A stretch of 45,228 bases of DNA from a virus (Duplodnaviria; Caudoviricetes), in IMG/VR virus record IMGVR_UViG_3300043473_000123, positions 1-45,228 of that record. One strand, written 5' to 3'. The position numbers and the translations under genes were made by a program. Numbering within the stretch: the first letter of the stretch is position 1; each line of letters begins with the position of its first letter. Shown here in pieces: positions 2,765 to 22,669 of the stretch. The notes under the pieces were generated by a model. It was not told where the DNA came from, did no database searches, and saw only the letters and a list, made by a program, of their open reading frames with translations.

Positions 2765-2816
2765 GATATATGCGCTCAGCGCATCGAGGTCAAGGGATAA
2801 ATGCGCTGGGCGCAGA
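2765..2816 (-). promoter_or_regulatory. Sigma70-like promoter (TTGACC-N17-TATATC) with palindromic operators ATGCGC-N3-GCGCA
   Basis: atgcgctcagcgcat at 2770-2784 inside the spacer; atgcgctgggcgcag at 2802-2816. Confidence 0.6.
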
Positions 2817-2832
2817 AATATGCGGAGCGGGC

Positions 2833-3399
2833 ATGGTGGCGCGCCGGCAGGTAGCCGAAGCGCTGCACCGCCGGCCACGCGGGGGCAGACCCGATACCGG
2901 GCCGGTCTATACCGATGAGATTGCCGAAGAGATCTGTGACAGGTTGGCGGCAGGTGAGCCGCTCGCGAGTATCTGCCGCGATGCGCATATGCCTGATGAG
3001 AAAGCCGTAAGAAAATGGGTGCAAACTCGCGCCGAGACCTTTGGTCCGATGTACGCACGCGCGAGAGATATTGGATATGACAGTATTGCCGAGCGAATAC
3101 TTGAGCTGGGCGAAGACCGGGCAGAGTGTATCGGTCCTGATGGCTACATCGACAACGGTGAGATCCAGCGCCTGCGGCTGCTGAGTGACAATCGGAAGTG
3201 GCTGCTTAGCAAGATGCAGCCCAAGCGCTACGGCGATAAGGTCACCCAGGAGATCACCGGCGAGGACGGCGGGGCGTTGATCACCCGCATCGAGCTGGTG
3301 CCGGTTGACCCGAGGCCACGGCCGATGATCGAGCACGATCCTGGTCGTAATGATGGGTTTGATGGCGGGAAGAAGCCATCAAGGGTCAGGAAACGCTAG
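2833..3399 (+). CDS. terS: Terminase small subunit (Sf6 gp1-like)
   Basis: GRP...YTDEIAEEICDRLAAGEPLASICRDAHMP...RLLSDNRKWLLSKMQPKRYGDKV. Confidence 0.85.
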   Translation: MVARRQVAEALHRRPRGGRPDTGPVYTDEIAEEICDRLAAGEPLASICRDAHMPDEKAVRKWVQTRAETFGPMYARARDIGYDSIAERILELGEDRAECIGPDGYIDNGEIQRLRLLSDNRKWLLSKMQPKRYGDKVTQEITGEDGGALITRIELVPVDPRPRPMIEHDPGRNDGFDGGKKPSRVRKR

Positions 3400-4143: not shown

Positions 4144-4314
4144 ATGAGCGCAGCAATCTGGTTTTGGATCTTTTTTGTTATTAGCCTTGTGTTTAGCGGC
4201 GGCTGGTACTGGCGCAATCAGGCGGTATTGCAGCCGTATGGGCCGTTCAGCCTGATTTTTTTCATACTGATCGGGCTATTGGGGTGGGGTGTGTTTGGCG
4301 CCCCGATCCGGTGA
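4144..4314 (+). CDS. Small two-TM membrane protein (holin-like or cassette anchor)
   Basis: MSAAIWFWIFFVISLVFSGGWYW...FSLIFFILIGLLGWGVFGAPIR. Confidence 0.6.
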   Translation: MSAAIWFWIFFVISLVFSGGWYWRNQAVLQPYGPFSLIFFILIGLLGWGVFGAPIR

Positions 4315-4339
4315 TGGTGGCATGGCAGTGAGGTTACAG

Positions 4340-4696
4340 ATGCGATACCCCGCCTTGGTGTCCGTGCCGTTGTTGCTGTTGGCGCCGTCTTTGTGCCCCG
4401 CCCAGACCGCCTTTCAGCCTGGTGGCAATACGGTGACGCTAAGCGTCACCGGCACCACGGCCCGCGTCCAGGTGCAGCCAGCCGGTGCCGGGCAGCAGAA
4501 TGTGCGCGTATATAACAGCGGTACGGTAGCGGTCTTCCTGTCCTGCGGCGATGTGGCGGTAACGGCAGCCACCGCCACCAGCATGCCGATCGCTCCCGGC
4601 ACGGTGGAGGTGATCGGCTGCGGCCAGCAATATGTGGCCGGGATCAGCGCGGGTACGGCGGCCACGGTGTACCTGACGGCAGGGAGCGGCATCTAA
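4340..4696 (+). CDS. Small beta-rich protein with signal peptide; possible capsid vertex/spike-base protein
   Basis: MRYPALVSVPLLLLAPSLCPA|QTAF; beta-strand pattern with NVRVYNSG and SMPIAPG. Confidence 0.6.
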   Translation: MRYPALVSVPLLLLAPSLCPAQTAFQPGGNTVTLSVTGTTARVQVQPAGAGQQNVRVYNSGTVAVFLSCGDVAVTAATATSMPIAPGTVEVIGCGQQYVAGISAGTAATVYLTAGSGI

Positions 4697-5572
4697 ATGA
4701 AAGGCACAGCCGCCTTTCTCGCCGCTTTGCTGCTGTCGGGGCCGGCCGACGCCTATCTGAAGGCGGGGCCGGCGGGGTACGGGCATTGGCTGCAGGGGGC
4801 GATTGCGCCGTTAGACGGCGGTGGGGCTTTCACCACCCCGGCGGCGGCCTACAGCATGCGCCGGCTGAAATCCACCTACGCCGGGCCGGGGCTAAAGCTG
4901 CGCCGGGCGACGGGCGGTACGCAGGACATAAATTTCCTTGGGTTCAGCGGCTTCACCGGGGCGCCGATCGATACCGCGGCGGCCAACGCCTTTTGCGCCA
5001 GCACCACCTGTTTCATCGACACTTGGTACGACCAGTCGGGCAATGCGCGGCATATGCTGCAGCCGACGGCGGGGAGCCAGCCGCAGTATATCGGGGCGTG
5101 CAAAGGGTCGCTGCCGTGCGCCCAGGAGACGGCCACGGCGCAGAATATGAGCGTGGCGAGCGTCGCGCCGTCGGCAGTCATCAGCCTGAGCGCGGTGGCG
5201 CAGCACGCAGTGCGGCCGGGCGGTTGCGTCTACATATCGGTCAACTTCAGCAATAACCTGTACCAGGACCCGACGACGGATGTGTTGCATCTGCAGGGGA
5301 CTGGCGGGATCAACGCGCCGGCCACCGGCCTTGCCTGGCACAGCCACACGGCGACGACCAACGGGGCGGCGAGCGTGGTCAACATCGACGGCACGGAAAC
5401 CGCCGGCACGGTGAGCGTGGCGGCGGGCGCCGGGCCGCTGTATTTCAGCCCGCAGGCGGCCGGGGCTACCTGTAATAACGCCGAGATGATCTGGTGGGAC
5501 GGGTATGCCCTGACGGGAGCAGAGCGGGCGGCGTTGCAGGCGAATCAGAAGAGCTTCTGGGGTACGCCGTGA
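4697..5572 (+). CDS. Signal-peptide protein with arabinofuranosidase-catalytic/ConA-like domain; possible head fibre or adhesin
   Basis: MKGTAAFLAALLLSGPADA|; AAAYSMRRLKSTYAGP..LRRA and CFIDTWYDQSGNARH motifs. Confidence 0.6.
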   Translation: MKGTAAFLAALLLSGPADAYLKAGPAGYGHWLQGAIAPLDGGGAFTTPAAAYSMRRLKSTYAGPGLKLRRATGGTQDINFLGFSGFTGAPIDTAAANAFCASTTCFIDTWYDQSGNARHMLQPTAGSQPQYIGACKGSLPCAQETATAQNMSVASVAPSAVISLSAVAQHAVRPGGCVYISVNFSNNLYQDPTTDVLHLQGTGGINAPATGLAWHSHTATTNGAASVVNIDGTETAGTVSVAAGAGPLYFSPQAAGATCNNAEMIWWDGYALTGAERAALQANQKSFWGTP

Positions 5573-7068
5573 GGCGCATCGCCATAGCCGCGGCGGCGCT
5601 CTTCCTGTTGCGGGCCGACATGTATCAAGATGCCAGCAACGCGGCGCAGCCGGCGGCGTCGGACAATCTGGGCAAGGCGGCGGGCGGCTATTTCGCGCCG
5701 GCCTATGGTTCCTGCACTTGGGACGCGACGCACGACGTTGGCGCCTGCGTCAACCAAGCGCTGACGGCAGCGGCGGCGGTCGGCGGCACGGTAAGCCTGC
5801 CGCCCGGCACTTACGGCCTCTCCACCAGGATCGTGTGGCCGACCGCGGCCCCGGTCAGGCTGGTTTGCCCGGGCGGCTCGTCGGCAACTCCCGCAACCAT
5901 GCTGAAGTGGATTGGCGCTGCGGCGGGGCGGATGGCGGAGGTCCGCACCGGCACCGGCAGCGTCAAGGGCGCGGCGATCACCGGCTGCGGGTTTAACGGC
6001 AACGGTGGGCTGGCGGCGGACGGTCTTTACCTCGCGAGCGTCTACAACGGGCACTTTGACGATTTGACGTTCACCGGCGGCTTTAGCGGCGGCAACGTCG
6101 TCAACCTGACGGTTGACAGCGTGACCGGCGCCGGCAGTCAGAACAATACCTTCGACAATTTGTACATCGACAACGGCACGAACTTTGGAGCCGGCTATCC
6201 GTACAGCAGCAACCAGTTGCGGCTGGGGGCGTTTATCGACGGCACCGGGGTTCATGGCAACGCGGCGTTCAACCGGGGTAACAACATTTTCATCGGTGGC
6301 AGCGGCGGCACGGGTATCCTATGCGTCGGTTGCGACAATAACTACCTGAGCGGCCGGGTATTCAATAGCGGGACGAGTGTTGACCTGACGGTGGCGGTAT
6401 CCGGCGCAAACATGTTCCCGGCCAGCGGCAATGTGTTGTCGCCGATGCAGTACACCGGCGCGGCGGTGGCCCGCGGCAAGACGACATTCCCGGCCTGCGC
6501 GTCGTACTCGACCTGCACCTATAACAATAACATCGTGATCGACAGCACCAACGCGACGCCGCAGCCAACGGTGGAGACGGGTGCGGATCTGAGTTGGGGC
6601 AGCAACAGCGGCTATCGCTCGAACTTGAGTTTGATCGGCAAGCGCCTGGTGCAGCCCGGTTTGGTGGCGGCGCACGATTATGCGATCTGGGGCGGCTGCA
6701 AGCAGAACGCGGCGCTCTACGGGACGCAGGCGACGACGTATTTGTGCAACAGCGAGAATTCGCCTTACGTCGCATTCGACAGCGTCGGCGGCGATCGGTT
6801 TCAGATCGACAGCTCGGGGTCGGCCGGCGCGCAGAGCCTGCGGTTCCAGCGCATGGCGGGGACCGGGAGTTTCGTTTTCCAGGGTGCCCCGGTCGTCGTT
6901 CCGGTGGTGGCGGTGGCGTCCTTGCCGACCTGCGACGCGACCCGCAAGCACGGGGTCATGTCGGTGTCGGACCAGAACGGCGCACCCACCTATCGCGGCG
7001 CCCTGACCGGCGGCGGCGCGATAGCGGTGCTGGCCTATTGCAACGGCACGAGCTGGGAAGCGCATTGA
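5569..7068 (+). CDS. Signal-peptide tailspike-like beta-helix (pectate-lyase-like) protein
   Basis: GTG start MRRIAIAAAALFLLRA|DMYQD; D-VGACVNQALTAAAAVGGTVSLPPGTY; Gly/Asn-rich; C-terminal VASLPTC...YCNGTSW fibre-tip-like motif. Confidence 0.7.
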   Translation: MRRIAIAAAALFLLRADMYQDASNAAQPAASDNLGKAAGGYFAPAYGSCTWDATHDVGACVNQALTAAAAVGGTVSLPPGTYGLSTRIVWPTAAPVRLVCPGGSSATPATMLKWIGAAAGRMAEVRTGTGSVKGAAITGCGFNGNGGLAADGLYLASVYNGHFDDLTFTGGFSGGNVVNLTVDSVTGAGSQNNTFDNLYIDNGTNFGAGYPYSSNQLRLGAFIDGTGVHGNAAFNRGNNIFIGGSGGTGILCVGCDNNYLSGRVFNSGTSVDLTVAVSGANMFPASGNVLSPMQYTGAAVARGKTTFPACASYSTCTYNNNIVIDSTNATPQPTVETGADLSWGSNSGYRSNLSLIGKRLVQPGLVAAHDYAIWGGCKQNAALYGTQATTYLCNSENSPYVAFDSVGGDRFQIDSSGSAGAQSLRFQRMAGTGSFVFQGAPVVVPVVAVASLPTCDATRKHGVMSVSDQNGAPTYRGALTGGGAIAVLAYCNGTSWEAH

Positions 7069-8093
7069 TGAAGCAGCGCATCCTGATCGCCGCCGGGCTG
7101 TTGCTGGTATCGAGTGCGGTATTGGCCGATATGTTTCAGGACGCCGGCAACGCCAAACTGCCGGACGCCCGGCAGAACCTGGAATTGGGCACGACGCGGT
7201 CGGAGGGGAGCAACCTGCCCAACGCCGATGCGGTGACGCGGTTTTACACCTACAGCAATGCTCCGGGCGACCTCGTCAATTACGGCACCAAGGTGCAGTT
7301 CCAGGTCAATAGCGAGCCGGATGCGGCGGATTACGCAGTGGAGCAGGCGGGAAAATCGGATGGTGACGGGCAGGGGCAGGGCGCGACCCGGCTATGCACG
7401 ACAATCCTCGGCAGCACCGCGAACTGCAATTATATGAGCCTCGGCAAAAACTCTATTCATCTGTTCGGCAATGGCGCCGGGCGTCTCCTGGAGATCGGCT
7501 CGGTGGCGGCGGCGCCGGTCAATGCCTGGCCGAAGCTGTTACCGGGGGACGATGCGACGGCGCGGTTGTGGGTAATGACCGGCGCGACGGTTAACGCGAG
7601 TCTGGAGCTGAAGCCAAAGGGCGCCGGCAGCGTCAATATCGCCTCGACAACGGGAGGCCCGCCGCTATCGCTTATCGGGTCGCCGGGCGGGGCCCAGCCG
7701 GCGGTTATCAGTTCCCCGGCAGCGGGGGTGCAGATCAACGGTCACCGCGCGGTGACGCACACCAATTTGGGGGCGTACACGGTCCCGTCAGAGGAGACCG
7801 GGACGCATTATCACAATACCGGGGCGGTTGGGGCGTCGACGCTGACCTTGCCGCCTGCCGTGGTGACGCCCGGGCTGGGCGGGGTTTATTACTGTTTCTC
7901 GGTGGATGCGGCTTTCAGCGTTGTCGTCAAGGCGGCCGGCACCGACAAGATCGCGATCGGCGCCAGCAATAGCGCGGCTGGCGGCCAGATTTCGGCGACC
8001 CAGCCTTATGCCAGTATCTGCCTTGAAACCCACAAGACCGGGCAATGGTTTGCCACCAGCACGCCGGATAAAAGCCAATGGACGGTGCTGTGA
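7068..8093 (+). CDS. Signal-peptide tail-fibre-like protein
   Basis: MKQRILIAAGLLLVSSAVLA|DMFQDAGNAKLPDARQNLELG; LELKPKGAGSV and TLTLPPA...AAGTDKI fibre-like motifs. Confidence 0.65.
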   Translation: MKQRILIAAGLLLVSSAVLADMFQDAGNAKLPDARQNLELGTTRSEGSNLPNADAVTRFYTYSNAPGDLVNYGTKVQFQVNSEPDAADYAVEQAGKSDGDGQGQGATRLCTTILGSTANCNYMSLGKNSIHLFGNGAGRLLEIGSVAAAPVNAWPKLLPGDDATARLWVMTGATVNASLELKPKGAGSVNIASTTGGPPLSLIGSPGGAQPAVISSPAAGVQINGHRAVTHTNLGAYTVPSEETGTHYHNTGAVGASTLTLPPAVVTPGLGGVYYCFSVDAAFSVVVKAAGTDKIAIGASNSAAGGQISATQPYASICLETHKTGQWFATSTPDKSQWTVL

Positions 8094-9253
8094 TCACCCG
8101 GCGCGCCGTCATCGCCTCGGCGGCGGCGGCTGCGTTGATCCGGCCGCGCCCGCTCCGGGCGGTGACCACAGGAGTAACCCCGGTATTCATCCACTTTGGC
8201 GGCATGGGGTATTCCTTTGACAACCCCAGCCGGCAGAACGCGGTCCACCTGAGCCCGCCACAGTGGCAATTCCGCGCGCCGTTTTTCTGCGACGTGCTCG
8301 GCAATCACCGGCTGAGTTGTCTTGGGGTGCAGTCCGATATGGACATCGAGATCCAGGCGGCGGCCAATGCCGGGATCCAGGCGTTTATGTTTCTCGGCGC
8401 GCCGAAGGCACGCCAGCCTGGGGTCTATAAAGCCTGGGATTACTATAATGCTTCGCCGTATAAATCGTCGTTAAAATGGGCCGGCTATGTCGGGCCGGAG
8501 GATTTTGGCTTCAACCCGTGGTCGAACACGGCCGAGTGGCAGGCCAACTGCAACTATTACGTCAACACCCACTTCAACACGCCGAACTATCTGAAGCTTG
8601 GCGGGCGACCGGTGCTGTTTGTCAGTTGGCATCAGGATACGTTGGCGACCCATTTCGCCGGATCGACAGCGAACTGTATCACTAGTTTCAATTATCTGCG
8701 ATCGCAGGCAGTCGCGGCTGGTGTCGGCAATCCGTATATCGTCGCGATGGGCGACCCATACGGCAGCAACCCAACGTCGCACGAGGCTAAGCCTTGGGTG
8801 ACGGGTGATGCGATCTCTAATTATGTGCCGAACACGGTGCCGACAGCCCTGCCGAACACCGCGGCCGATCTCGATGTTAAGATGCAGGCGTGGTGGGCGG
8901 CGCAGGTGGCGCTCGGCGACAAATATGTTCCCAATGCGCTGATGGGCTGGGATGTGCGGCCGTTGCAGCAACTGCCACAATTCAATTCTCCCCGTATCCC
9001 GTGGAACGGGACTGATCAGTATTTCATCCGCGGCACCAATGCCGAAATTGCTGCCAATCTGCAGCATTGCATCGATTTTATCGGCGCCAACCAGCCAGCT
9101 TGCGACAGTAAAATCATGCTGGTCTACGCCTGGAACGAGTGCAGCGAGGGCGGTACGGCCGGCATCCCGACATTGGGTGACCCGCCGACCGGCAGCCCGC
9201 CGACGACCAACTTGCTCTCGGCGATCAAGCCGGTGCTGACGGCAGCCGCATGA
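8090..9253 (+). CDS. Tat-signal glycoside hydrolase (GH71/GH99-like TIM barrel)
   Basis: MITRRAVIASAAAAALI twin-Arg signal; EIQAAANAGIQAF, PNYLKLGGRPVLFV, GWDVRP, YAWNECSEGG. Confidence 0.75.
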   Translation: MITRRAVIASAAAAALIRPRPLRAVTTGVTPVFIHFGGMGYSFDNPSRQNAVHLSPPQWQFRAPFFCDVLGNHRLSCLGVQSDMDIEIQAAANAGIQAFMFLGAPKARQPGVYKAWDYYNASPYKSSLKWAGYVGPEDFGFNPWSNTAEWQANCNYYVNTHFNTPNYLKLGGRPVLFVSWHQDTLATHFAGSTANCITSFNYLRSQAVAAGVGNPYIVAMGDPYGSNPTSHEAKPWVTGDAISNYVPNTVPTALPNTAADLDVKMQAWWAAQVALGDKYVPNALMGWDVRPLQQLPQFNSPRIPWNGTDQYFIRGTNAEIAANLQHCIDFIGANQPACDSKIMLVYAWNECSEGGTAGIPTLGDPPTGSPPTTNLLSAIKPVLTAAA

Positions 9254-10449
9254 GCGCGATGACCCGAGGTGCAGTGATGGGCCGCGCCGCTGTTTTTCTT
9301 ACCCTGCTGTTGTTGGCCGCATCGGCCCCAAGGGCGCTGTACGCGCAGCAGGTGCCGCACCCGGTCGGCGGGCCTGCCACATCAACGATGGACGAACTGG
9401 CTTCGTGGAACTCGCTTTACGGTAACGCGATCAAGCAAGGTCCGGCCTTTATCACCAACGATACGCCTTCGATCTCGATCGACGGGTCGCCATTGACGGC
9501 GCGGAACACGACGGCTTTTACCGCCAGCCAGATCCTCGACGCGGCTGTTCTTGTGCCTCCCGGGACTGGCGCGAAAAACTATGATGCCTTGCGCGGTATC
9601 ACGTTCGCCCCAGCGGCTACGACGATCAACCTCGTCAGTGGGGTCTCGGCGTATTTGGTGAGCGATGCGGCGACGGTCGGGGTCGGCGGGTTCCCGGCAG
9701 CGGTGGGGTTGTTCGCGGCCGGGGTGGCGCGTGGCAACGGCGCCAAAATCTGGGGCGTCAACACCCTCTTATCTGACACGATGACCGGCGCGGTCAGCGC
9801 CGGCACCGGTAAGGCGCTCAACAACGAGTTCGATTTTAACGTCTCCTCGCCGAATACGACGATCCTCGCCCTTCAGCTTGCTGGCAGCTCGATAGCGCAG
9901 CCATCTGCGGCTTATGGGGTGGTATTGCAACCGCTCGACAGTGGTTATCCTACCGCCGGCACCATCAAGTGGAGTGCCTTCCTTCAGGCCAATCCAGGCG
10001 CAACCAACATCTTTGCTGGGATTGGCCCGAAACAGGTGACCGGAGCAAGTATCGCATCGCAAGATATTATTATGGGGTTTTACGATACTGGTAGTGCTTA
10101 CGGCAATATCGTGTTGAATGGAAGTAGCGCCGGGGGGCTGCAGGTATTCTCGGCCAATTCTTTAGCGCGGGCGGTAACGATTACCGGCGGCGCGGGCCGG
10201 TTTGCCGTGGAAGACGGCGGCGGGTTTACGATCAACAGCAGAATCGTGATGCAAGGGACCGGCGCCAATTTCGGGGTCGGGGCGAATACCGGCTACACCA
10301 CCCAGACTTACGGCAACGCCACGGCGACAACTGCAATCCTCGGCTCGATTATCAGTCTGAATACGTTGCCGACCGTGGCCGGCGGCGGCGGCCTGACCGT
10401 CTGCATAGATGCCAGCGGGGTTTTGTACAAAAAGGCGGCGTGCCCGTGA
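9250..10449 (+). CDS. Signal-peptide fibre/spike-like protein (start may be 9277)
   Basis: MGRAAVFLTLLLLAASAPRALYA|QQ; Gly/Ala/Thr-rich; C-terminal TVCIDASGVLYKKAACP. Confidence 0.6.
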   Translation: MSAMTRGAVMGRAAVFLTLLLLAASAPRALYAQQVPHPVGGPATSTMDELASWNSLYGNAIKQGPAFITNDTPSISIDGSPLTARNTTAFTASQILDAAVLVPPGTGAKNYDALRGITFAPAATTINLVSGVSAYLVSDAATVGVGGFPAAVGLFAAGVARGNGAKIWGVNTLLSDTMTGAVSAGTGKALNNEFDFNVSSPNTTILALQLAGSSIAQPSAAYGVVLQPLDSGYPTAGTIKWSAFLQANPGATNIFAGIGPKQVTGASIASQDIIMGFYDTGSAYGNIVLNGSSAGGLQVFSANSLARAVTITGGAGRFAVEDGGGFTINSRIVMQGTGANFGVGANTGYTTQTYGNATATTAILGSIISLNTLPTVAGGGGLTVCIDASGVLYKKAACP

Positions 10450-10682
10450 GGCTGCTGATCCTGTTGCTGATCCTGCTTGCCGGCCCGGCATTGGCGCAGC
10501 AACCCTCGCCGGAACCCCGGGAGCCGGCGGCGATGCGGGGTGTCGTGCTGGCATTGCAGCAGATGGCGGTCTCGACCGAGCAGTATATATCAGACGTTAC
10601 CCGGCGTTTGGCCGAGAAGGATGCTCAGATTAACGAGCTGACCCAGAAATGCGGCGAGAATTGTAAAACCGGAGGCAAGTGA
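10446..10682 (+). CDS. Small signal-peptide coiled-coil protein (possible fibre chaperone)
   Basis: MRLLILLLILLAGPALA|QQ; RLAEKDAQINELTQKCGENC. Confidence 0.6.
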   Translation: MRLLILLLILLAGPALAQQPSPEPREPAAMRGVVLALQQMAVSTEQYISDVTRRLAEKDAQINELTQKCGENCKTGGK

Positions 10683-10686
10683 TGTT

Positions 10687-11982
10687 ATGACCAGCGGCCA
10701 GATCCAACTGCCGAGAAAACTGGTCGAGGTGTTTAGCGGTGAGGCTCTTTATCGTGGTGCTTACGGCGGAAGAGGAAGTGCCAAATCCCGTAGTTTCGCC
10801 AAGATGGCTGCTGTTTATGGTCTTAGGGCTGCTCAGGCCAAGCAATCGGGGGTTATTGTTTGTGGCAGAGAATTTCAAAACTCGCTTGATGAAAGCAGTA
10901 TGGCGGAGGTTAAACAAGCCATCGAAAGCGAGCCATGGTTGGCTAAGAACTACGAAATCGGTGAGAAATACATTAGAACCAAAGATGGGCGCATTGACTT
11001 TACATTCGTGGGCCTACGGCGAAATATCGAGTCAGTCAAGTCTACTGCACGCATACGCCTTCTATGGGTGGACGAGGCGGAGCCCGTCAGTGAGGTTGCT
11101 TGGCAAAAGGCTATCCCGACAGTTCGCGAGGAGGGTGCGGAAATCTGGATTACCTGGAACCCGGAACGACGCGCGTCGGCGACTAATCAACGATTTAGGA
11201 TTAACCCGCCGCTCGATTCCAAAATTGTAGAGGTAAACTACAAAGACAATCCTTGGTTTCCGAGCGTTCTGGAGCAGATCCGCAAAGAAGATGAGCGGGT
11301 AAGACCGGAGCAATACGCCCATGTTTGGCTCGGCGATTATGCCACGGCGCATGTCGGGGCTTACTTCGCAAGGCATTTGAACGAGGCGCAGGAAGAGGGT
11401 CGGATTTCCAAGGTTATGCGCGATCCTCTCCTTCCGATAAGAGTGTATTGCGATCTTGGAGGAACGGGAGCAAAGAGCGATGCTTTTGCCGCCTGGGTTT
11501 GCCAGTTCGTCAGCCGCGAAGTACGAATCCTGGACTATTACGAGGCTATCGGAGAGCCACTGGCGGTACATATTCAATGGCTACGAGACGGCGGCTGGGG
11601 GAAGGCAGATATCTACCTTCCGCATGATGGTGCAACCCACGATCGGGTCTTCGACGTTTCTTTTGAAAGCTCGTTTCGGCAGGCCGGGTTCAAAGTAGAG
11701 GTGATCCCGAACCAGGGCCGCGGCGCCGCCAAGATGCGGATCGAGGCGGCGCGCAGATTGTTCCCGAGTGTGTGGTTCAACAAGGAGACCACTGAGGCCG
11801 GCCGGGATGCTTTGGGGTGGTATCACGAAAAGAAGAGCGAAGACGTGCGGGATGTCGGGCTGGGGCCGGAGCATGATTGGTCAAGCCATGGCGCCGACGC
11901 CTTTGGTCTTTTAGCGGTCGGTTACGAGACCCCGCAGGGGCGGCCGGTTAAGTTGAAGTACGAAAGATTGGGGATAGTGTGA
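10687..11982 (+). CDS. terL: Terminase large subunit (PBSX/Terminase_3-like)
   Basis: Walker A GGRGSAKS, Walker B LLWVDEAE, TWNP, nuclease motifs DLG and HDWSSHGADAF. Confidence 0.95.
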   Translation: MTSGQIQLPRKLVEVFSGEALYRGAYGGRGSAKSRSFAKMAAVYGLRAAQAKQSGVIVCGREFQNSLDESSMAEVKQAIESEPWLAKNYEIGEKYIRTKDGRIDFTFVGLRRNIESVKSTARIRLLWVDEAEPVSEVAWQKAIPTVREEGAEIWITWNPERRASATNQRFRINPPLDSKIVEVNYKDNPWFPSVLEQIRKEDERVRPEQYAHVWLGDYATAHVGAYFARHLNEAQEEGRISKVMRDPLLPIRVYCDLGGTGAKSDAFAAWVCQFVSREVRILDYYEAIGEPLAVHIQWLRDGGWGKADIYLPHDGATHDRVFDVSFESSFRQAGFKVEVIPNQGRGAAKMRIEAARRLFPSVWFNKETTEAGRDALGWYHEKKSEDVRDVGLGPEHDWSSHGADAFGLLAVGYETPQGRPVKLKYERLGIV

Positions 11983-12372: not shown

Positions 12373-14987
12373 GCGACGGTTACACGTTCCGCGGCTCGGC
12401 CTTCTCCGGCGACGATATCCCGGGGGTGCGTACCACCCGTGGTTATCGCGAGAAAGAGAGGGAGCAGATCATCCAGGGGTTGCAGCTCGACGACCTCGAC
12501 GAGGAACGGATCAAAGGCATCATCCAGGGTGAGTTGGAGCAGGCGCTGGGGCAGGATGGCGGTTCACTCTCGAATGACCGCCTGGAGGCCTTGCGTTACT
12601 ACAATGGCGAGCCGTTTGGTAACGAGGTGGCCGACCGCAGCCAAGTGGTCATGCGCACCGTTCTGGAGGCGGTAGAATGGGTTCTACCGGCGTTGATCCG
12701 CATCTTTACCGCCAGCGATAAACTATGCGTCGTCGAACCGCCGCGCCCGGGCATGGAGGATCAGGCCCGTCAAGCCACGGATTATTTGAACTTCATCGCG
12801 ATGAGCGATAACCCTGGCTTTATGATCCTCAGAGACTGGTTTCACGACGCGCTCCTGGAGCGCCTGGGCTGGGTCAAGTACTATTGGGATACGCAAAAGA
12901 CTACCGAAACTCAGTCCTATACCGGTCTGACAAAGGAGCAATACGAAGCCCTTCTCGGCGACGACGAGGACGTTGAGGTCATCAAGCTCGAAACCTATAA
13001 ACAGGACACTGACGAGTTCAATCTGGATCGGCCTTTTGTGCCTCCAGGACTGCCTCCCATGCCTGTCCCACCGCCGTTACCGCCGTTACCAGGGGGTCCG
13101 ATGGGTTCGGGTCCAGGTCCGGGTAGCGCCGGTCCAGGATTTCCTCCAGCGATTCCAACGCCCACTCCAGGGCCTGCAGGGACTCCTGGAGGTATGCCGG
13201 TCGCTCCGGCGCCGGGGCTTCCTCCAGTGCCCGGAATGCCCGCGGCGGGGATGGGGCCGCTTGGGCCACCGCCGCCGCCCTTGCCAGGGCCGCCGCCGCC
13301 TGTTGGGTTGCCTGGTCCTGGGTTTCCGCCACTACCGCCTCCTGAGATCGAATTATACGATTGCACGCTCAGGATAACCCGCGAGCACGGGGTTGTGCGC
13401 ATTCTCAATGTGCCGCCCGAGGAAGTGCTTTTTAGCAAAAGAGCCAAGCGCGGCGACATCCCGTTCTTGGCGCATCGCCGCTCCTGGACCTATAGCGATC
13501 TGATCCAACAGGGCTATGACGAGGAATGCCTTGATCTGGTGCCAATGGACGATAGCAGCGAATCCAATATGGAGCGGACGGAAAGACACCGCGATTCGAT
13601 CGAGTGGCCGGGCGAGGATCGCCGCGATAGTGCTCGCAACATCTGGGTCGAGGAGAATTACTGCCGCTTCAGCATCGATGCCGACACGCCCTCGACCGAG
13701 CTTTACCGGGTGATGACCGCCGGCAACGGTAATGTCATCCTGACCAAGAAGAACAAGCCGGTGGTCGAGTGCGTCGACGAGATCCCGTTTGTCAGTATCT
13801 GTCCGGTGCCGGCAAGCCACAAGCTGGTTGGGCTTAGCCTCGCCGATCTGACAAAAGATATTCAGTTGATCAAAAGCACCTTGATGCGGCAAATGATCGA
13901 CAATGCTTTTCTTAGTAATTGGCCAAGAATTGAAGTAGCCGACGACAGTGTAAACGAAAATTCATATGATGATTTACTTACATTACGTCCGGGTGGAATC
14001 GTAAGAACTAGGCGTCTCGGCGGTATTCAGCCGATGATGATCCCGTTCACTGCCGACAAGACTTTTCCGTTGGTGCAATACCTGGACGAGACCGCGCAGC
14101 TCAGAACCGGGGTATCTAGCCAGGGCCAGATGGTTAGCCCGGATGCATTGAACAACACCGCGGCAGCATCGGTAGCGATGCTGCAGCAGGCAGCGGCGCA
14201 GCGGGTCGAGCTGTTCGCCCGGATCTTCGCGCACGGGGTAGAAGAGCTGATGCGCGGGGTGATGCGGCTGGTCAGGAAGAACCAGCAGCAGGAGCGCATG
14301 ATCCGGGTGACCGGCGGCTGGTTGAATGTCGACCCCAGAGAGTGGCGGCAGGAGATGCCGATCTCGGTGTCGGTAGGATTGGGCACCGGCAACCGTGACC
14401 AGATCCTGCAGCACCTGCTGCAGATTATCCAACTCCAGGGCACCATCGTACAACAGCAGCAAGGCGTGCACGGCCCGCTGGTTTACAGCCAGAATGTCTA
14501 CGATGCCTTAAAGGCACTGCAAGAAAACGCCGGGTTCAAATCGAGCTTCTTTGCCGATCCGAGGCAGGGACCGCCGCCGGGCAGCCCGCCGCCACCACCG
14601 CCGCAGCCCGACCCGAAAGCGGCTGCCGAGGCGGCGAAGATCCAAGCACAGATGCAAACCGAGCAAATGCAGGCGCAGGCCAATGTGCAGGCGATCGGCG
14701 TGAAGGCGCAGGCCGAGCAGCAATTGATGATGGAGAAGGCGCAGGCCGACGCGGCGATCCAGCAGCAGAAGCTGGAGCATGAAAAGGCGATGGGTCTCCT
14801 CAAGGTGCAGCACGAGACCGAGTTGGAGCGCCAGAAGGCGGAGAATGCCTTAGCCGTGGGCATGGCCAAGGTGAAGATCGCCGGCGAAGCCAAGCAGCGC
14901 GAGATCGAGCTGAAATACGCCGCCGGGGCTTACGACCAGCGCCCGGCCGGGCCGCCTAACGGGTCATTCGGCGGGGCGGCCGAGTAA
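12369..14987 (+). CDS. Portal protein (P22-like, long C-terminal barrel) with Pro/Gly-rich insert
   Basis: DRLEALRYYNGEPFGNE..RSQVV, DWFHDALL..GWVKYYW, GLSLAD..KDIQLIKSTLMRQMIDN, VSVGLGTG. Confidence 0.9.
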   Translation: MSDGYTFRGSAFSGDDIPGVRTTRGYREKEREQIIQGLQLDDLDEERIKGIIQGELEQALGQDGGSLSNDRLEALRYYNGEPFGNEVADRSQVVMRTVLEAVEWVLPALIRIFTASDKLCVVEPPRPGMEDQARQATDYLNFIAMSDNPGFMILRDWFHDALLERLGWVKYYWDTQKTTETQSYTGLTKEQYEALLGDDEDVEVIKLETYKQDTDEFNLDRPFVPPGLPPMPVPPPLPPLPGGPMGSGPGPGSAGPGFPPAIPTPTPGPAGTPGGMPVAPAPGLPPVPGMPAAGMGPLGPPPPPLPGPPPPVGLPGPGFPPLPPPEIELYDCTLRITREHGVVRILNVPPEEVLFSKRAKRGDIPFLAHRRSWTYSDLIQQGYDEECLDLVPMDDSSESNMERTERHRDSIEWPGEDRRDSARNIWVEENYCRFSIDADTPSTELYRVMTAGNGNVILTKKNKPVVECVDEIPFVSICPVPASHKLVGLSLADLTKDIQLIKSTLMRQMIDNAFLSNWPRIEVADDSVNENSYDDLLTLRPGGIVRTRRLGGIQPMMIPFTADKTFPLVQYLDETAQLRTGVSSQGQMVSPDALNNTAAASVAMLQQAAAQRVELFARIFAHGVEELMRGVMRLVRKNQQQERMIRVTGGWLNVDPREWRQEMPISVSVGLGTGNRDQILQHLLQIIQLQGTIVQQQQGVHGPLVYSQNVYDALKALQENAGFKSSFFADPRQGPPPGSPPPPPPQPDPKAAAEAAKIQAQMQTEQMQAQANVQAIGVKAQAEQQLMMEKAQADAAIQQQKLEHEKAMGLLKVQHETELERQKAENALAVGMAKVKIAGEAKQREIELKYAAGAYDQRPAGPPNGSFGGAAE

Positions 14988-14992
14988 GGCTG

Positions 14993-16288
14993 ATGGCGGC
15001 GCTTGATTGGCTGCAAAGCCTGCTCGGTGGCGGCCAACACGGTGATCCGAGCACGCCGGCAATGCCGGCGCAGCCGTTGCCGGACGATGCCCTGGTCCGG
15101 CTCCGTGACATGTTGGGGCAGGGCGCCGCCTCGTCGCTCACTGCCGGCGGCGGCGATGTGCAGCCTGGCCTCAACATGCTGGGGCGCGCTGTTGTGGCGC
15201 CGGCATTGGCGGGTGGCGCGGCGCTGGAGGCGACGATGACCGGGCAGCCGGTGTCGGCGGCGGAGATGCTGCAGGCGGCGATGATGGGAATCACCCCGAC
15301 GCCGACGCGACTGCCGGGGGGCGTGCCGAGCGCCACCCCGACCACGATGGAGCGGCTGTGGGCTGACGAGAGCGGTGCGCTCAAGCTGGGCGGCGGGCCG
15401 ATCCGCGCTTTCCACGCCAGCCCTTATGATTTTGAAAAGTTCGACTTGGGCAAGGTCGGCACCGGGCAAGGTGCGCAGTCTTATGGGCACGGCATCTATG
15501 CCGCCGAAAGCCCAGCGGTGAGCGGCAAGGGCGGCCAATACGATCTTGAGTTTACCGCAAAAAACCTTGGCAAATACGATCTGAACCCGGGCGAATTGCA
15601 AATCCATCGGATGTTACGCGCCGACCGCAGTGACATGGATATCTTGGGCGAGTTGGCGAAGGGCGGCGGCTATACCTTTGATGAAGCGATGGCAGCGCTC
15701 GACCGCGTCAAGGCGGCTAAGGCCAAGATCTACGAAGTAGACATCCACGCCGACCCGCAATCGTTTTTGGATCTTGATAAATCGCTTGGAGGGCAACCGC
15801 CGCCGGTTCTGCAGGCGTTACAGGAAATCGGAACACCGCAATCTATGATGTCGTTGAATGCGGATGAAGCGATCAGGCGAGCAGGAGAAAATCCGCTCCG
15901 GGCGGCCGATCTTTTTAATCGAGGTGGCGCACCATTGGAGATGACGCCCGCTGATGTGTCGGCGAGATTACGCGAAGCCGGTATTCCCGGCAGCCGCTAC
16001 CTCGACCAGGGTTCGCGCGGGGCGGCGGTAGATCCGGCCGGCATTCAGCGCAATATCGAGATGATAGAAGGCTATCTACGTGATCCGCGAATGCACCCGA
16101 CGCATCATGCTGGTTGGCAAAAGCGGATTGAAGAATTGCAAGCTGAATTGATTAAGGCCAGACAGCCCGGCACCAGCAACTACGCCATCTTCGACCCCAG
16201 CATCATCGAGATCCTGCGCAAATACGGCATCCTGCCGCCGGTAGCGGCGGGCGGCCTCCTCGCAACGGGCTCCGAGCCGCCGACATGA
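14993..16288 (+). CDS. ADP-ribosyltransferase-like (ART-PolyVal-type) protein
   Basis: AFHASPYDFEKFD..GTGQGAQSYGHGIYAAE; LREAGIPGSRYLD; NYAIFDP. Confidence 0.65.
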   Translation: MAALDWLQSLLGGGQHGDPSTPAMPAQPLPDDALVRLRDMLGQGAASSLTAGGGDVQPGLNMLGRAVVAPALAGGAALEATMTGQPVSAAEMLQAAMMGITPTPTRLPGGVPSATPTTMERLWADESGALKLGGGPIRAFHASPYDFEKFDLGKVGTGQGAQSYGHGIYAAESPAVSGKGGQYDLEFTAKNLGKYDLNPGELQIHRMLRADRSDMDILGELAKGGGYTFDEAMAALDRVKAAKAKIYEVDIHADPQSFLDLDKSLGGQPPPVLQALQEIGTPQSMMSLNADEAIRRAGENPLRAADLFNRGGAPLEMTPADVSARLREAGIPGSRYLDQGSRGAAVDPAGIQRNIEMIEGYLRDPRMHPTHHAGWQKRIEELQAELIKARQPGTSNYAIFDPSIIEILRKYGILPPVAAGGLLATGSEPPT

Positions 16289-16467
16289 GCGTGGTTCCGT
16301 TCAAAAAGCCGCAGCCTAAGAAGCCGCGCATCCGGGTCTGCGACTGCCACAATGAGAGCTTCTGGGTGTACGAGGACGGGCGCATCCAGTGCATGCAGTG
16401 CGACCGGTTCGACGATGGCATACGGGGCGTTTGGTCGTTCGTCGTAGACCAGGATGAGCCCGCCTGA
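16285..16467 (+). CDS. Small zinc-ribbon protein
   Basis: CDC and CMQC motifs. Confidence 0.55.
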   Translation: MSVVPFKKPQPKKPRIRVCDCHNESFWVYEDGRIQCMQCDRFDDGIRGVWSFVVDQDEPA

Positions 16468-16772
16468 TGCTGAGCCGTTGGGCGCGGTTTCTGGCCAAGG
16501 TGGATATCCCGTGGCGGCCGAGCGCGCCGCCGCCGACCGACCGGCAGGAGTTGGGCGAAGAGGCCAGAAGGCTCCTCGACAATCCGGTCCTGCACGAGGC
16601 GATGGACCGGGTCGAGCGGAAGTTGGTCGACACTTGGCGCAACACCGCGCCTGGGGAAGACGAGCAGCGCGAAGCGGCCTACGCGATGTACTGGGCGATG
16701 CAGCAAATCCGCGGTGAATTGCGGATCATGATCGCCAATGCAGGCATGGCGATACGTCAGCGCGCCGAATGA
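16467..16772 (+). CDS. Head-module hypothetical protein
   Basis: GEEARRLLDNPVL...W...REAAY type typical between portal and scaffold. Confidence 0.65.
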   Translation: MLSRWARFLAKVDIPWRPSAPPPTDRQELGEEARRLLDNPVLHEAMDRVERKLVDTWRNTAPGEDEQREAAYAMYWAMQQIRGELRIMIANAGMAIRQRAE

Positions 16773-16954
16773 ACGTCGAGGGTCTGACCAACCGGCAGGT
16801 GTTGGTCCGCGCATTGCGCCGCCTGCTCGATGAGGTCGAGACCGGTCTGGTATCGGCCGAGGCGGTGGAGCGGGCCAAGGAAGCGCTGGGCGAGGTGGTC
16901 CGGAACAAAAAGCCCGAGAGCTTGGCGAAATTGAAGCCGAGCAAAAAAGTCTAA
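16769..16954 (+). CDS. Hypothetical protein
   Basis: ATGA-coupled ORF. Confidence 0.5.
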   Translation: MNVEGLTNRQVLVRALRRLLDEVETGLVSAEAVERAKEALGEVVRNKKPESLAKLKPSKKV

Positions 16955-16973
16955 CTCCCCACAAGGACAAAAC

Positions 16974-18053
16974 ATGAGCGACGCAGCGCCCTCCGCTTTA
17001 GCGGGTGAGGGCCCCGGAAGCATGACCGAAGCACAGGTCATGGAGGGCATTGAAGGCCTGCTCGACGATAAGCCTAAACGCAGACAACCGCCGAGAACGC
17101 TGGAGACCCGGACTTTACCGGGTGCGGAAGCGCTGGCGGAAGAGGAGCAAGGGTCGCAAGACCCGCTGCCGGGACCGGATGATCCGCCCACCCGAGAGGA
17201 AGAGGAGGACGACGCCTACGAACCCGACACCGAGCCCGCGGAAGAGGGCGAGGAGTTGGCCCATCAAGGGATCGAGCCACCGAGTAGTTGGACGAAGCAG
17301 GACCGGGAAGTGTTCGGCACGCTCCCACCCGAAGCCCAGGCAATCATTGCCCGCCGGGACAGCGAGCAGAACGCGGCCTTTAAGCAGAAAACCCAAGAGA
17401 TAGCCGAGCATCGAAAAGCGCTCGAAACGACGTTTCAAACCGTCGAGCAAGAGCGTCAGACTTACGCCCAGAACCTGCGTCAGCTTTTGGCAGTAGCGAT
17501 GCCGGAGGCCGAGCGGTTTAGTCAGGTCGACTGGACCCGTTTGGCGCAGGAGCAGCCAGCCGACTATGTCAGGATGACGGCCGAACGCGATGCCTTACGG
17601 GGTCGCCTCGGTACGATCCAGCAGGAACTGCAGCAAGTCGAGGCGCAAAGCCAACAGGCGCACGCCTATCAATTTGCCCAGATCCGGCAGGCCGAACAAC
17701 AGCGGCTGGTGGAGGCGATCCCGGAATACGGCGACCCCGAGAAGGGGCCGGCAAAGATCGCCAGCGTGCGCAATTGGCTGAGCAAAAAGGGCTTTAACGA
17801 CCAGGAGATCGGCGCGGTGGTGGATCACCGTGTGCTGCTCGTGGTCGAGGAGGCGATGCAGGCGGACCGGATGAAAGAGGTCCGCCAGCAGGCGCAGCAA
17901 AAGCGCAGCAATGGTGGCGTGGTGCAGCCTCCCGGTGCCTCGAGAGCAGGGCCGGATAACCGGGCGGCACAGCGGCGCCAGCAGAAAATGACGGCACTCA
18001 AGCAGTCGGGCAGCGAAAAGGATGCTATCGGCTATCTCATGGAAATCCTCTAA
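16974..18053 (+). CDS. Capsid scaffolding protein
   Basis: Acidic N-terminus, PPSSW, long Gln/Glu coiled coil, directly upstream of the capsid gene. Confidence 0.8.
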   Translation: MSDAAPSALAGEGPGSMTEAQVMEGIEGLLDDKPKRRQPPRTLETRTLPGAEALAEEEQGSQDPLPGPDDPPTREEEEDDAYEPDTEPAEEGEELAHQGIEPPSSWTKQDREVFGTLPPEAQAIIARRDSEQNAAFKQKTQEIAEHRKALETTFQTVEQERQTYAQNLRQLLAVAMPEAERFSQVDWTRLAQEQPADYVRMTAERDALRGRLGTIQQELQQVEAQSQQAHAYQFAQIRQAEQQRLVEAIPEYGDPEKGPAKIASVRNWLSKKGFNDQEIGAVVDHRVLLVVEEAMQADRMKEVRQQAQQKRSNGGVVQPPGASRAGPDNRAAQRRQQKMTALKQSGSEKDAIGYLMEIL

Positions 18054-18077: not shown

Positions 18078-19828
18078 ATGGCGATCATCACAGGAACGGC
18101 TACTACACATGCCGGCGCGCCCGGCTTGCAGGGTCTTAGAGAGGACCTTGCCGAATGGATAAGCAATCTCAGCCCTACAGATACTCCTTTTACGAGTAAT
18201 GTCGGCAGAGGCACCGCCGATGCCGTGTATCACGAGTGGCAGACGGACAGTCTAGCGGCACCAAACACGGCCAACGCGCAGTATCAGGGTGATGATATCG
18301 CGACGTTTACTCCAGCAAGTGTCACCGCACGCTTGGGAAATCGAACTCAAATCTCCCGCAAAGAGGTGATTATTTCGGGAACAGTCGATGCGGTAAATAA
18401 AGCTGGCCGCCGCACCGAACTAGCCTCAATTCATTAGGGGCCTTCCGGGAGCGATCCCGGTCGATACTGGGTGAAATCGGTGGACACCCCTTTGGGGCAA
18501 TACCGAGCCAAGCCGCTGACAAGCGGAAGGTGTAACGACTAGGCGAAAGCCGTAGGGGCCAAGCGGCCTCGAAGCGCCCAGCCCTCCCGCGAGGGAGGTG
18601 AAGAGATAGTCTGGTCTGCACGGCAACGTGCAGCAGTCTCGGCGACCGCAATCCGGGACGCGGCGGGAGTAGCGAACCAGCCGGAACACAACGACCAAAT
18701 GACCAAGCGCGCTAAAGAATTGAAGATCGACATCGAAGCGATCCTTCTTTCCAACCAGGCAAAAGTGGTCGGCGCGGTGGCTGTCGCGCCCAAAGCGGCT
18801 TCCGTGCTTGCGTGGTTGAAAACGAATACCAACCACGTCGGCACCAACCCGACAGGTGACGGGACGGATGCCAGGGTGGACGGTACGCCGCGGGCCTCGA
18901 TCCATTAGGGGCACTTTCGCGGGTGACCGCGATCGATCACCGGGTGAATTGCTGGAACCTCCCGCAAGGGACAATCAGCAGCCAAGCCGCTTCGAGGGGA
19001 GCGGAAGGTTCAACGGCCAGAGGGAAACCTCGTAGGGGCAAGCGCCCCGAAGCGCCCGGCCCCGCCCAAAAGGCGGGTGAAGATATGGTCTGCTCTATGC
19101 GGCAACGTATAGCTGCCGGCGCAAGCCGGCGCGGCAGGAATTAGCGAGCCTGCCGGAACACTAGGTTACGGAAGCGATGTTGAAGTCGGTTTCTGCGAGC
19201 GTGTTCACCAACTCCAGTGAAGACCTCGATGTGCTCATGGTCGGCGGTGCCAATAAAGCCGTCGCATCGGGCTTCGCTGGTGGCGCGCAGAAGACCTACG
19301 ATGTTTCCGACCGCAAGCTGGTTACTACGATAGACGTGTGGGTGGGTGACTCAATGGGGTCCTTGGCGGCGTAAGCTGCCTCGAAGAACTGGGTGAATTC
19401 GGTGAACATCCGGGCGTCCCGGACAATACCGAGCCAAGCCGCGCAAGCGGAAGGTGTAACGACTAGAGCGCAAGCTCGTAGGGCCAAGCGGTCCGAAGCG
19501 CCCAGCCCCCGGAATAAAGCCCGGGGTGATGAGATAGTCTCCTCTGCACGGTAACGTGCAGCAGTCCGTAAGGACGCGACGAGATTAGCGACCTCGTTGG
19601 AAGATTTAGGTCCACACGATCAGGATCATCCCAAACCGCTTTATGCGGCCGAGGGATGCGTTGTTGTTGAACTGGAGCTTGTGGAGCGTTGACTGGCTTC
19701 GTCCAATTCGACAGATGGAATTGGCGAAAACAGGCGATGCGGAGAAGCGTCTACTCATCGGCGAGTATACGTTGGTGTCTAAAAATGAAGCCGGAAATGG
19801 CGGCATTTTCGATCTCACGGCTCCGTAA
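18078..19828 (+). CDS. Major capsid protein (DUF5309/SU10-like), spliced: join(18078-18426,18694-18897,19166-19351,19611-19828), 318 aa
   Basis: GLREDL..ISNLSPTDTPF, HEWQTDSL, RLGNRTQI, KELKIDIE, LAKTGDAEK..GEYTL; removing the three introns restores ELAYQMTK, PRAFTEAML and VGDFHTIRIIPNRF in one frame (957 nt). Confidence 0.92.
18427..18693 (+). ncRNA. Group I intron 1 in capsid gene (267 nt, ORF-less, IA-like with P7.1/P7.2)
   Basis: 5' exon ends in U paired to G in P1 (GCCU|C...GGGGC); P3 CUGGGUG/CGCCCAG; P4 UCGGUG/UACCGA; P7 GACUA/UAGUC; terminal G. Confidence 0.9.
18898..19165 (+). ncRNA. Group I intron 2 in capsid gene (268 nt, ORF-less)
   Basis: GCCU|C...GGGGC P1; P AAUUGCUGGAA, Q AAUCAGCAGC, R UUCAACGGCCAG, S AAGAUAUGGUCU; terminal G. 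Confidence 0.9.
19352..19610 (+). ncRNA. Group I intron 3 in capsid gene (259 nt, ORF-less)
   Basis: GACU|C-AAUG-GGGUC P1 with U.G; core closely similar to intron 1; terminal G. Confidence 0.9.
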
Positions 19829-20510: not shown

Positions 20511-20599
20511 CCTAGCGCTCCAATCGCTGGCGGTGGTCAGGTGGCGGGCCGGTGCTGATACACCGCTCGCCACCGCACTGTATCAGAAACGCTGACTGA

Positions 20600-21153: not shown

Positions 21154-22275
21154 ATGGCCTTGGACACCTACGCCGCCTTGAAGACCAGCGTCCTGTCCTG
21201 GCTGGCGCGGCCGGGCGACCCGCTGGTGGAGCCGGCGGTCGATGACATGGTCAAACTGTTTGAGGCCGAAGCAAACCGCAGATTGCGGGTCGGTGCGGCC
21301 GAGAAATACGTCACATTGACCACGATCGGCGGCACCGGCGGCATCGCCTTGCCGAATGACTTCCTGCAAGCGCGGCGCGTTTCCTGCGATGGCTACACTT
21401 TGGCTTATGTCCCGCCCAGCCTCTTGCCAGGTCTCGGCGGCCCGCCGCTCGCCTACACCTTATGGGGTAACACCATCCTGTGGATCGGGCCGCTGCCCGA
21501 CACGGTCTACGACATCGAATTGATCTACCAATCGGGCGTGCCGCCGTTGGCCGGTGGTGACGGGACCAATTGGCTCCTAGACCAGCACCCCGACGCCTAC
21601 CTGTTCGGAACCCTGGCAGAGGCCGAGCTTTACATCGGCCACGATGAGCGGGCGCCGATGTGGCTGCAGCGCCGCGAGGCGGCGTTCGCCTCGATCGAAA
21701 TGAGCGACCGAAAAGCCCGCTGGGGCGGGCCTCTGCAAATCCGGGCGCATGGTATCCAGATCGCGCCGGGCAGTGCCCACGGGGGCGGCACGGTGCCGAC
21801 AATTTCGGGAGGCAATCAAGTGTATGTCGGCACGACCCCGCCCGCTACCGTGAACGAGGGCGATCTGTGGTGGGACTCATCCTCCACCGGCCTCGGCGGC
21901 GGCCAGCTTTATGTCTATTACCTCGACCCGACCGGCGTTCCGGGGCAGTGGGTTGCCGCCACCAACCAGCCAGGGTCCGCAACCGCCGGCATATTGACGC
22001 TGACACCGAGTTCGGGCGACACCATTGTCATCAGCCCCGGCGCGCCTAGTGTCTACATCTCGTCCGGTTCTCTGGCGGCATTGACCGTGCAACTACCGGC
22101 CACCCCGCCGCTCGACAACACGGTGCAGATCTCCTTTGCCCACGACGTAGAGGCGCTGGCGGTGCAAACCAGCACCGGGGGGGCGGTAACGGGTGCCCCG
22201 GACAATGCCTTCGGCCCGGGTGCGGCATTGATCTTCCGCTACGTCCCGCCGGGTGTGTGGATTTACTGGAAATAA
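21154..22275 (+). CDS. Head-tail adaptor with C-terminal fibre-like extension
   Basis: TYAALKTSVLSWLAR...EAEANRRLR, TNWLLDQHPDAYLFGTL; extension TPPATVNEGDLWWDS, GQLYVYY, QWV. Confidence 0.75.
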   Translation: MALDTYAALKTSVLSWLARPGDPLVEPAVDDMVKLFEAEANRRLRVGAAEKYVTLTTIGGTGGIALPNDFLQARRVSCDGYTLAYVPPSLLPGLGGPPLAYTLWGNTILWIGPLPDTVYDIELIYQSGVPPLAGGDGTNWLLDQHPDAYLFGTLAEAELYIGHDERAPMWLQRREAAFASIEMSDRKARWGGPLQIRAHGIQIAPGSAHGGGTVPTISGGNQVYVGTTPPATVNEGDLWWDSSSTGLGGGQLYVYYLDPTGVPGQWVAATNQPGSATAGILTLTPSSGDTIVISPGAPSVYISSGSLAALTVQLPATPPLDNTVQISFAHDVEALAVQTSTGGAVTGAPDNAFGPGAALIFRYVPPGVWIYWK

Positions 22276-22276
22276 A

Positions 22277-22669
22277 ATGAGCTTGGATTTCCCGACCGGA
22301 CCGACGAGTGGCCAGACCCACACAGAGGGGGGGCTGACCTGGCGGTATCTGCCGCCACGATGGATCGCGGCCACGCCGGCGCCGCCGGAACTGTTGCCGC
22401 CGCAGATGCTGGTCGTTACCTCCAGCCAGGTTCTGCCGGCAGGGTTTACCGGCACGGTGTTGGTCGAGGCCGCCGCGTCGTTGACCCTAACCCTGCCACC
22501 AACACCGGTGACTGGCCAGGCGGTGACGGTCAAAGACGCTCTCGGCAATGCCGGTACTTACCCGATCACGGTGGCGGGCACCATCGAGGGCATCACCGAT
22601 ATGACGATCAATTTTGCCTATGGCTGGGTGTCGCTGACCTATAGCGGCATCCAATGGATTCAGACGTGA
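22277..22669 (+). CDS. Small tail/fibre-associated protein
   Basis: LDFPTGPTSGQT..TWRY; LTLTLPPTPVTGQAVTVKD..NAGTYPITV. Confidence 0.6.
   Translation: MSLDFPTGPTSGQTHTEGGLTWRYLPPRWIAATPAPPELLPPQMLVVTSSQVLPAGFTGTVLVEAAASLTLTLPPTPVTGQAVTVKDALGNAGTYPITVAGTIEGITDMTINFAYGWVSLTYSGIQWIQT

Follow-up and report, generated by a model that had tools for sequence, protein, structure and literature searches.

We analysed a window consisting of the whole of IMG/VR record IMGVR_UViG_3300043473_000123, a 45,228 nucleotide (nt) record of an uncultured podovirus-type phage, and within it a cassette of seven plus-strand genes (g1 to g7, 4340-10682) located between the terminase genes terS and terL. These genes probably encode exported, disulfide-bonded appendages that dock onto virions at lysis. 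A preliminary description of the region had left two options, namely such docking or the export of an adhesin/depolymerase complex by the infected cell. Export and disulfide pairing of the cassette proteins are well supported by sequence conservation. Docking onto virions is the favoured option, because the base gene preceding g2 can be swapped, together with the docking peptide, for a base of the Rcc01079 type known from the Rhodobacter capsulatus gene transfer agent (RcGTA), and because signal-bearing fibres are found in the tail modules of close relatives; the docking step is what we infer from these arrangements. The seven genes likely constitute a receptor-binding kit comprising a head spike (g1 and g2), tailspike and fibres (g3, g4 and g6) and an enzyme (g5). 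The cassette and its neighbours are listed below, with lengths in amino acids (aa).

2770-3399: terS
4144..4314, plus strand: g0, a 56-aa peptide with two transmembrane segments, a holin candidate by shape only
4340..4696, plus strand: g1, predicted head-spike base with a signal of ~21 aa, a single jelly roll and the cysteine pair C69/C94
4697..5572, plus strand: g2, predicted head fibre with a 19-aa signal, an AbfB/ConA-like domain and six cysteines
5569..7068, plus strand: g3, beta-helix tailspike-like protein with a 16-aa signal, a putative DMYQD plug, 12 cysteines and a cysteine-flanked C-terminal module
7068..8093, plus strand: g4, fibre-like protein with a signal, a putative DMFQD plug and a beta-rich C-terminal domain with a cysteine pair
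8090..9253, plus strand: g5, twin-arginine (Tat-like) protein with seven cysteines and a weak WbsX glycoside-hydrolase-like match
9277..10449 (alternative start 9250), plus strand: g6, fibre-like protein with a signal, a putative QQVP plug and a C-terminal cysteine-pair module
10446..10682, plus strand: g7, small exported-type protein ending in CxxxC, located after the fibre genes
10687-11982: terL

The cassette genes start at 4340, 4697, 5569 (GTG), 7068, 8090 (GTG), 9277 or 9250, and 10446 (GTG). Successive gaps from g1 through g7 measure 0, -4, -1, -4, -4 (with the 9250 start) and -4 nt, whilst g0 lies 25 nt before g1 and g7 ends 4 nt before terL. Positions, abutting or overlapping junctions and signal predictions agree with the initial picture of seven consecutive, coupled, signal-bearing genes behind a two-transmembrane peptide. 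The placement between terS and terL, also part of that picture, holds in the window but is not kept in relatives.

Signals were detected with a custom heuristic scoring n-, h- and c-regions, which flagged eight of the 72 called genes: all seven cassette genes and a PEP-CTERM gene. Across 15 genomes, the same heuristic flagged 1/118 core virion or packaging genes and 29/725 other genes. By this measure g1-g4, g6 and g7 each displayed a basic n-region, a hydrophobic h-region and small residues at -3/-1. Internal windows were also flagged in g1 (10/48) and g7 (5/8), compared with 0-2 % in g2-g6, so that conservation of the signals is the stronger test. The expectation that signals would be kept in homologues was borne out: 109 of 120 g1 homologues were flagged, and their signals share little sequence, with a mature core that begins at a fixed Phe and contains C69 and C94 in 99 % and 94 % of sequences, respectively. 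Among 44 matches to DM[YF]xD, 42 were N-terminal, preceded at -1 by Ala in 41 and Gly in one, and all 44 had even cysteine counts. The residue at -1 was Ala in 43 and Pro in four of 47 g2 N-termini, which were selected by motif. The twin Arg was present in all six g5 homologues, whose mature parts all begin with TTGV; g5 lacks the Phe that forms part of the Tat consensus motif, and no NCBIfam Tat match was found. Mature cysteine counts were even and non-zero in 31/32 cassette proteins, compared with 27 even, 44 odd and 34 without cysteine among core proteins. Within the window only g5, with its seven cysteines, departs from this pattern, and the paired cysteines of the preliminary description therefore stand for the cassette except in g5. 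These rows are related by descent, so neither the conservation nor the cysteine counts are independent. That signals diverge and mature starts do not was counted in favour of export and docking.

The same data bear on two other explanations of these N-termini. It is very improbable that sequence composition (Ala/Leu-rich, high GC) or wrongly placed starts merely mimic signals: the evidence is heuristic, and the heuristic also picked up 4 % of unrelated genes along with numerous windows inside g1 and g7, yet only a single core virion gene was flagged, the seven genes stand in a row, their starts are fixed by overlapping stop codons, and signal-less g1 homologues are ~20 aa shorter. We also regard it as improbable that the N-termini are uncleaved anchors, tethering appendages to the inner membrane to assemble there or await particles. 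Features that would suit an anchor are the strong hydrophobicity of some h-regions (mean 4.0 in g7), the shortness of the g3 signal and the Pro at -1 in a few g2 homologues. However, the Ala or Gly at -1 in every N-terminal DMxxD protein (42/42), the Ala in most g2 homologues and the onset of conservation directly past the cleavage site argue for cleavage, and the even cysteine counts suggest that the proteins reach an oxidising compartment.

The predicted head spike provides the strongest indication of docking. The g1 model is an all-beta single jelly roll with a predicted local distance difference test (pLDDT) score of 93, in keeping with the small beta-sandwich originally proposed. It had 70 matches in BFVD, all uncharacterised phage proteins. 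The PDB fold search gave Z 6-8 to many jelly rolls, viral vertex proteins among them (e.g. 6q5u_O, Z 6.6, root-mean-square deviation 4.2, 86 aligned); no match exceeded Z 8 and Rcc01079 (6TB9) was not in the list. The g1 profile matched nothing in the PDB, nor did hhalign match it to the Rcc01079-type profile, and kinship to that RcGTA protein was thus not supported at the level of sequence profiles. The g2 protein matched Pfam PF09206 (4e-11, 84 aa) and phrog_10356, annotated 'virion structural protein'. The match covers profile positions 11-91/315 only, without the catalytic domain of a full GH54 arabinofuranosidase B; the ConA/arabinofuranosidase-like assignment accordingly survives as a partial AbfB match. 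Its conserved N-terminal peptide is YLKAGP..GHW in the window and RMHAP..GHR in relatives.

Among the 47 g2 matches listed, which exclude loci L226 and L228, g1 directly preceded g2 in 43. Two of the remaining four were edge fragments, whilst in L222 and L225 the g1 slot is occupied by a signal-bearing, two-cysteine base protein. Its profile hit the 'Spike Base Protein' of PDB 8cjz (2e-6) as well as Rcc01079 of RcGTA (0.002). The g2 homologues of these two loci start after the signal with QGVGFGLG or QGLGSGLGL, resembling the N-terminal Gly-Leu peptide described for the RcGTA fibre (PMC7296036). The window g2 starts with YLKAGP and contains no RcGTA-type (I/L-G) repeat. A change of base family is thus accompanied by a change of peptide, and this suggests that g1 and the RMHAP/KAGP peptide are a pair equivalent to an Rcc01079-type base and its Gly-Leu peptide. 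Because profile comparison does not place g1 among the Rcc01079 homologues, this is a statement that it would work like the RcGTA base rather than one of family membership. As in the RcGTA head spike (Rcc01079 and Rcc01080, PDB 6TB9; PMC7296036), a small gene with a predicted jelly roll stands before the gene for a sugar-binding-type fibre, which would attach to the base through its N-terminal peptide, and L222 and L225 carry true Rcc01079 homologues. Unlike in RcGTA, the window g1 belongs to another family and is paired with another peptide, and both parts have signal peptides and cysteine pairs; the RcGTA fibre peptide is reported to start at residue 2 (PMC7296036). Rcc01079-type genes in viral contigs were mostly signal-less (6/76 rows flagged). 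The siphoviruses G010 and G014 carry a g1-g2-g3 block after the capsid gene. Separately, a third type of small, cysteine-rich, signal-like gene precedes the g2 homologue in L226 (12713-14811) and L228 (13217-14523), and the L226 homologue has the mature start QCLGFQC; this gene and the g2 homologue are possibly a third base-peptide pair. In another podovirus group (L244-L247), signal-bearing Rcc01079-type bases lie directly after terL, some without an adjoining fibre gene.

The wider g1 family comprised 2809 clusters by profile search. We kept 142 representatives from the best matches after dropping long fusions and four broken rows; 125 were signal-less and 17 signal-bearing. The signal-less loci examined adjoin genes for terminase or capsid, and a fibre gene is often a further neighbour. 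Signal and cysteines covaried (10/17 versus 11/125, raw p 6e-6), a test that after correction for kinship left one supported pair and was unpowered. The tree was poorly resolved, with 12 changes on the best tree, and a single signal-bearing clade was weakly rejected (approximately unbiased test, p 0.024, 60/142 rows).

On the tail side, the candidate fibre sockets are two signal-less proteins encoded outside the cassette.

21154..22275, plus strand: signal-less head-tail adaptor of SU10 type, predicted to serve as a fibre socket; it contains a GDLWWD domain and, at the C-terminus, a cysteine-free domain (adC)
22277..22669, plus strand: signal-less stub, likewise predicted to serve as a fibre socket, made up of an MxLDFP peptide and a terminal domain of gp9/XD1-like type

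The g3 monomer was modelled as a right-handed parallel beta-helix (pLDDT 83) with Foldseek matches to AlgE4 (3e-7), GVE2 ORF18 (3e-6) and several tailspikes. The beta-helix tailspike fold first suggested for g3 is thereby upheld as a fold, one common to tailspikes and secreted enzymes. The glycosidase assigned to g5 fared less well, as its WbsX match (PF14307, E 4e-4, 20.5 bits) falls below the Pfam cut-off of 25.1 bits. Family searches gave no match for g4 or g7, and PDB sequence searches with g1, g3, g5 and adC gave none either. The g3, g4 and g6 proteins have a mosaic build in which N-terminal peptides (DMYQD, QQVP) and cysteine-paired C-terminal modules are interchangeable. A 932-aa signal-less FP-type fibre in G006 (14612-17410) ends in the same cysteine-flanked module as g3, indicating that modules are exchanged between exported and cytoplasmic fibres.

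Exported fibres co-occur with virion stubs that lack a signal and have a gp9/XD1-like domain at the C-terminus. The adaptor and the 130-aa stub (a phrog_972 match) each terminate in a small cysteine-free domain, which is not followed by any receptor domain. The stub domain matched residues 100-168 of CBA120 TSP4 (PDB 7rej, E 6e-9) as well as proximal subunits of long tail fibres. XD1 of TSP4 spans residues 80-178 (PMC8825819), so a match to XD2 was ruled out. XD1 is described as a spacer and shares its fold with glycan-binding domains (PMC8825819); in the stub the XD1-like domain is terminal, leaving its distal face free. Of 16 distinct cases of QQVP fibre genes, nine lay directly after an XD1-type stub. 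The gene order in L195, L207 and G004 was adaptor, stub(s), signal-bearing QQVP fibre and nozzle, and the L195 adaptor is 86 % identical to that of the window. Among near-complete genomes found through g1, adC was present in 11/12 with a DMYQD protein and 0/3 without. Five further records, found through adC and none with g1, included a DMYQD protein in both complete and one partial record, and not in two partial ones. Klebsiella podophages are an established case of a peptide that docks onto a branching domain (PMC13352976). The short conserved N-terminal peptides resemble those of the CBA120 TSP4 (PMC8825819) and Klebsiella KP32 (PMC13352976) systems, and the g3 fold and the XD1-like stub domain are also like parts of tailspike and branched systems. 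Unlike in branched systems, the window peptides would be exposed only by signal cleavage, and unlike in CBA120 branching, the matched stub domain is XD1, the spacer, rather than XD2 or XD3 (PMC8825819). Adaptor and stub as fibre sockets are a weaker proposal than the head spike. A relic QQVP gene, reduced to a signal and 11 residues before a stop, was noted near 12566 of L140 (G014, which has no stub).

In the route we propose, six proteins would be exported by Sec and g5 by Tat. In the periplasm of the host all would fold and acquire their disulfides, and signal peptidase I would uncover short conserved N-terminal docking peptides. Oligomers of g1 on capsid vertices would grip g2 through its peptide, as in RcGTA, DMYQD- and QQVP-type fibres would plug into the terminal domains of adaptor and stub, and g5, whose gene follows g4 in the relatives seen, may hang on the tip of g4. 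Exported parts and cytoplasm-built virions would meet once the inner membrane fails. We lean slightly towards the broader proposal that many soil tailed phages possess such a second, extracytoplasmic branch of morphogenesis, using Sec/Tat export, disulfides, uncapped peptides and docking at release, which would extend across unrelated base families and across podo- and siphoviruses and would have been gained more than once.

Several observations weigh against export and docking. A search of the called genes plus 24/89 extra open reading frames found no endolysin, holin or spanin family, so that none of them accounts for the meeting of exported parts and virions. The genome carries a PEP-CTERM protein and hence does deliver proteins to the host surface. 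On the spike side, g1 has no sequence link to Rcc01079, six of the 17 signal-bearing g1 relatives lack cysteine, the heuristic is permissive for the hydrophobic g1 and g7, and Pro occurs at -1 in four g2 homologues. On the tail side, the window contains a signal-less fibre-like gene at 26663, G006 and G007 encode long signal-less FP-type fibres, the complete genome G014 has a DMYQD protein and no adC, G001 has a stub and no QQVP fibre, and DMYQD genes directly follow adC in just 2/48 cases. Stubs may also bind sugar themselves, judging from the resemblance of the XD1 fold to glycan-binding domains.

The PEP-CTERM surface protein, the temperate-type regulators of the genome and the failure to find an endolysin would equally suit an explanation that we consider unlikely, in which the exported proteins never join virions and are repurposed spike parts acting on or outside the infected cell as adhesin, capsule or biofilm depolymerase, receptor mask or egress aid. 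Parallels include the exported phage-fibre-like adhesins of Bdellovibrio (PMC10769870) and RcGTA TspA, described as a loosely attached, biofilm-degrading tailspike (10.64898/2026.07.19.739414). However, no membrane, lipoprotein or PEP-CTERM anchor was seen on any of the seven proteins, a capsid-type base and docking peptide are kept together, and the genes lie within late head or tail modules of both podo- and siphoviruses.

The accepted view is that the cytoplasm is the sole site at which tailed-phage particles are built. Our literature search, which covered few subscription papers, found no account of exported virion appendages in tailed phages; the parts of the cassette are of known kinds and the export-then-dock route appears undescribed. 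Burkholderia phage Bcep781 gp49 (AF543311.2), annotated 'possible tail fiber; possible signal peptide domain', is similar in having a Sec-like N-terminus and 15 cysteines, one inside the signal. Unlike the cassette, it is a single protein known from a database note and matches no module here. The MAT fibres of Bdellovibrio are likewise phage-fibre-like trimeric adhesins with signal peptides, but are chromosomal and cell-associated, with a 130-aa conserved post-signal domain and no capsid-type base in the published account (PMC10769870). The turrets of HFTV1 were considered as a precedent and set aside, as the available text of the structure paper does not contain 'signal peptide' (10.1101/2024.12.09.627619). 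The P22 tailspike has no signal peptide and presumably needs no export (10.64898/2026.09.13.751334). If true, an export-then-dock branch would change the view of wholly cytoplasmic tailed-phage assembly and explain how phages can use disulfide-stabilised receptor-binding parts. Signal-bearing phage 'CAZyme' (carbohydrate-active enzyme) genes read as auxiliary metabolic genes may then encode components of the virion. Because mature N-termini and peptide-socket pairs are predicted, this reading is directly testable.

The remainder of the window is consistent with a complete phage genome, as the first bases of the record recur at 45101, which fits a circular assembly. Packaging and head genes comprise an Sf6-type terS, a Terminase_3 terL, an SU10-type portal, capsid and adaptor; the nearest cultured portals are ~40 % identical. 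A GcrA gene points to an alphaproteobacterial host, and a GTDB search returned one contig-edge fragment only, without host assignment. No cultured phage carried the cassette: among cultured phages g1 matched only a signal-less Microcystis phage gene, g2 matched by its AbfB-like piece alone and g4 had no match. Atlas searches yielded only viral clusters and weak leads. A g0 homologue (86 %) occupies the same location in L032, and g0 had no match in family searches. The window also encodes cI/cro-like and excisionase-like genes alongside GcrA, and family searches of the window found no integrase. The phage-encoded PEP-CTERM protein (33741-34514, minus strand) has a signal peptide and two cysteines, with homologues in G002 and in the siphovirus G010 (92 % in the latter). 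A 77-aa gene of no known family (20600-20833), with a hydrophobic N-terminus and two cysteines, is kept in podo- and siphovirus relatives at variable positions and is often signal-flagged. The major capsid gene (18078-19828) is interrupted by three group I introns (Rfam RF00028; 18417-18633, 18888-19112 and 19342-19561), an endonuclease-like open reading frame lies nearby (19878-20573, minus strand), and capsid and terL genes are also split in several relatives.

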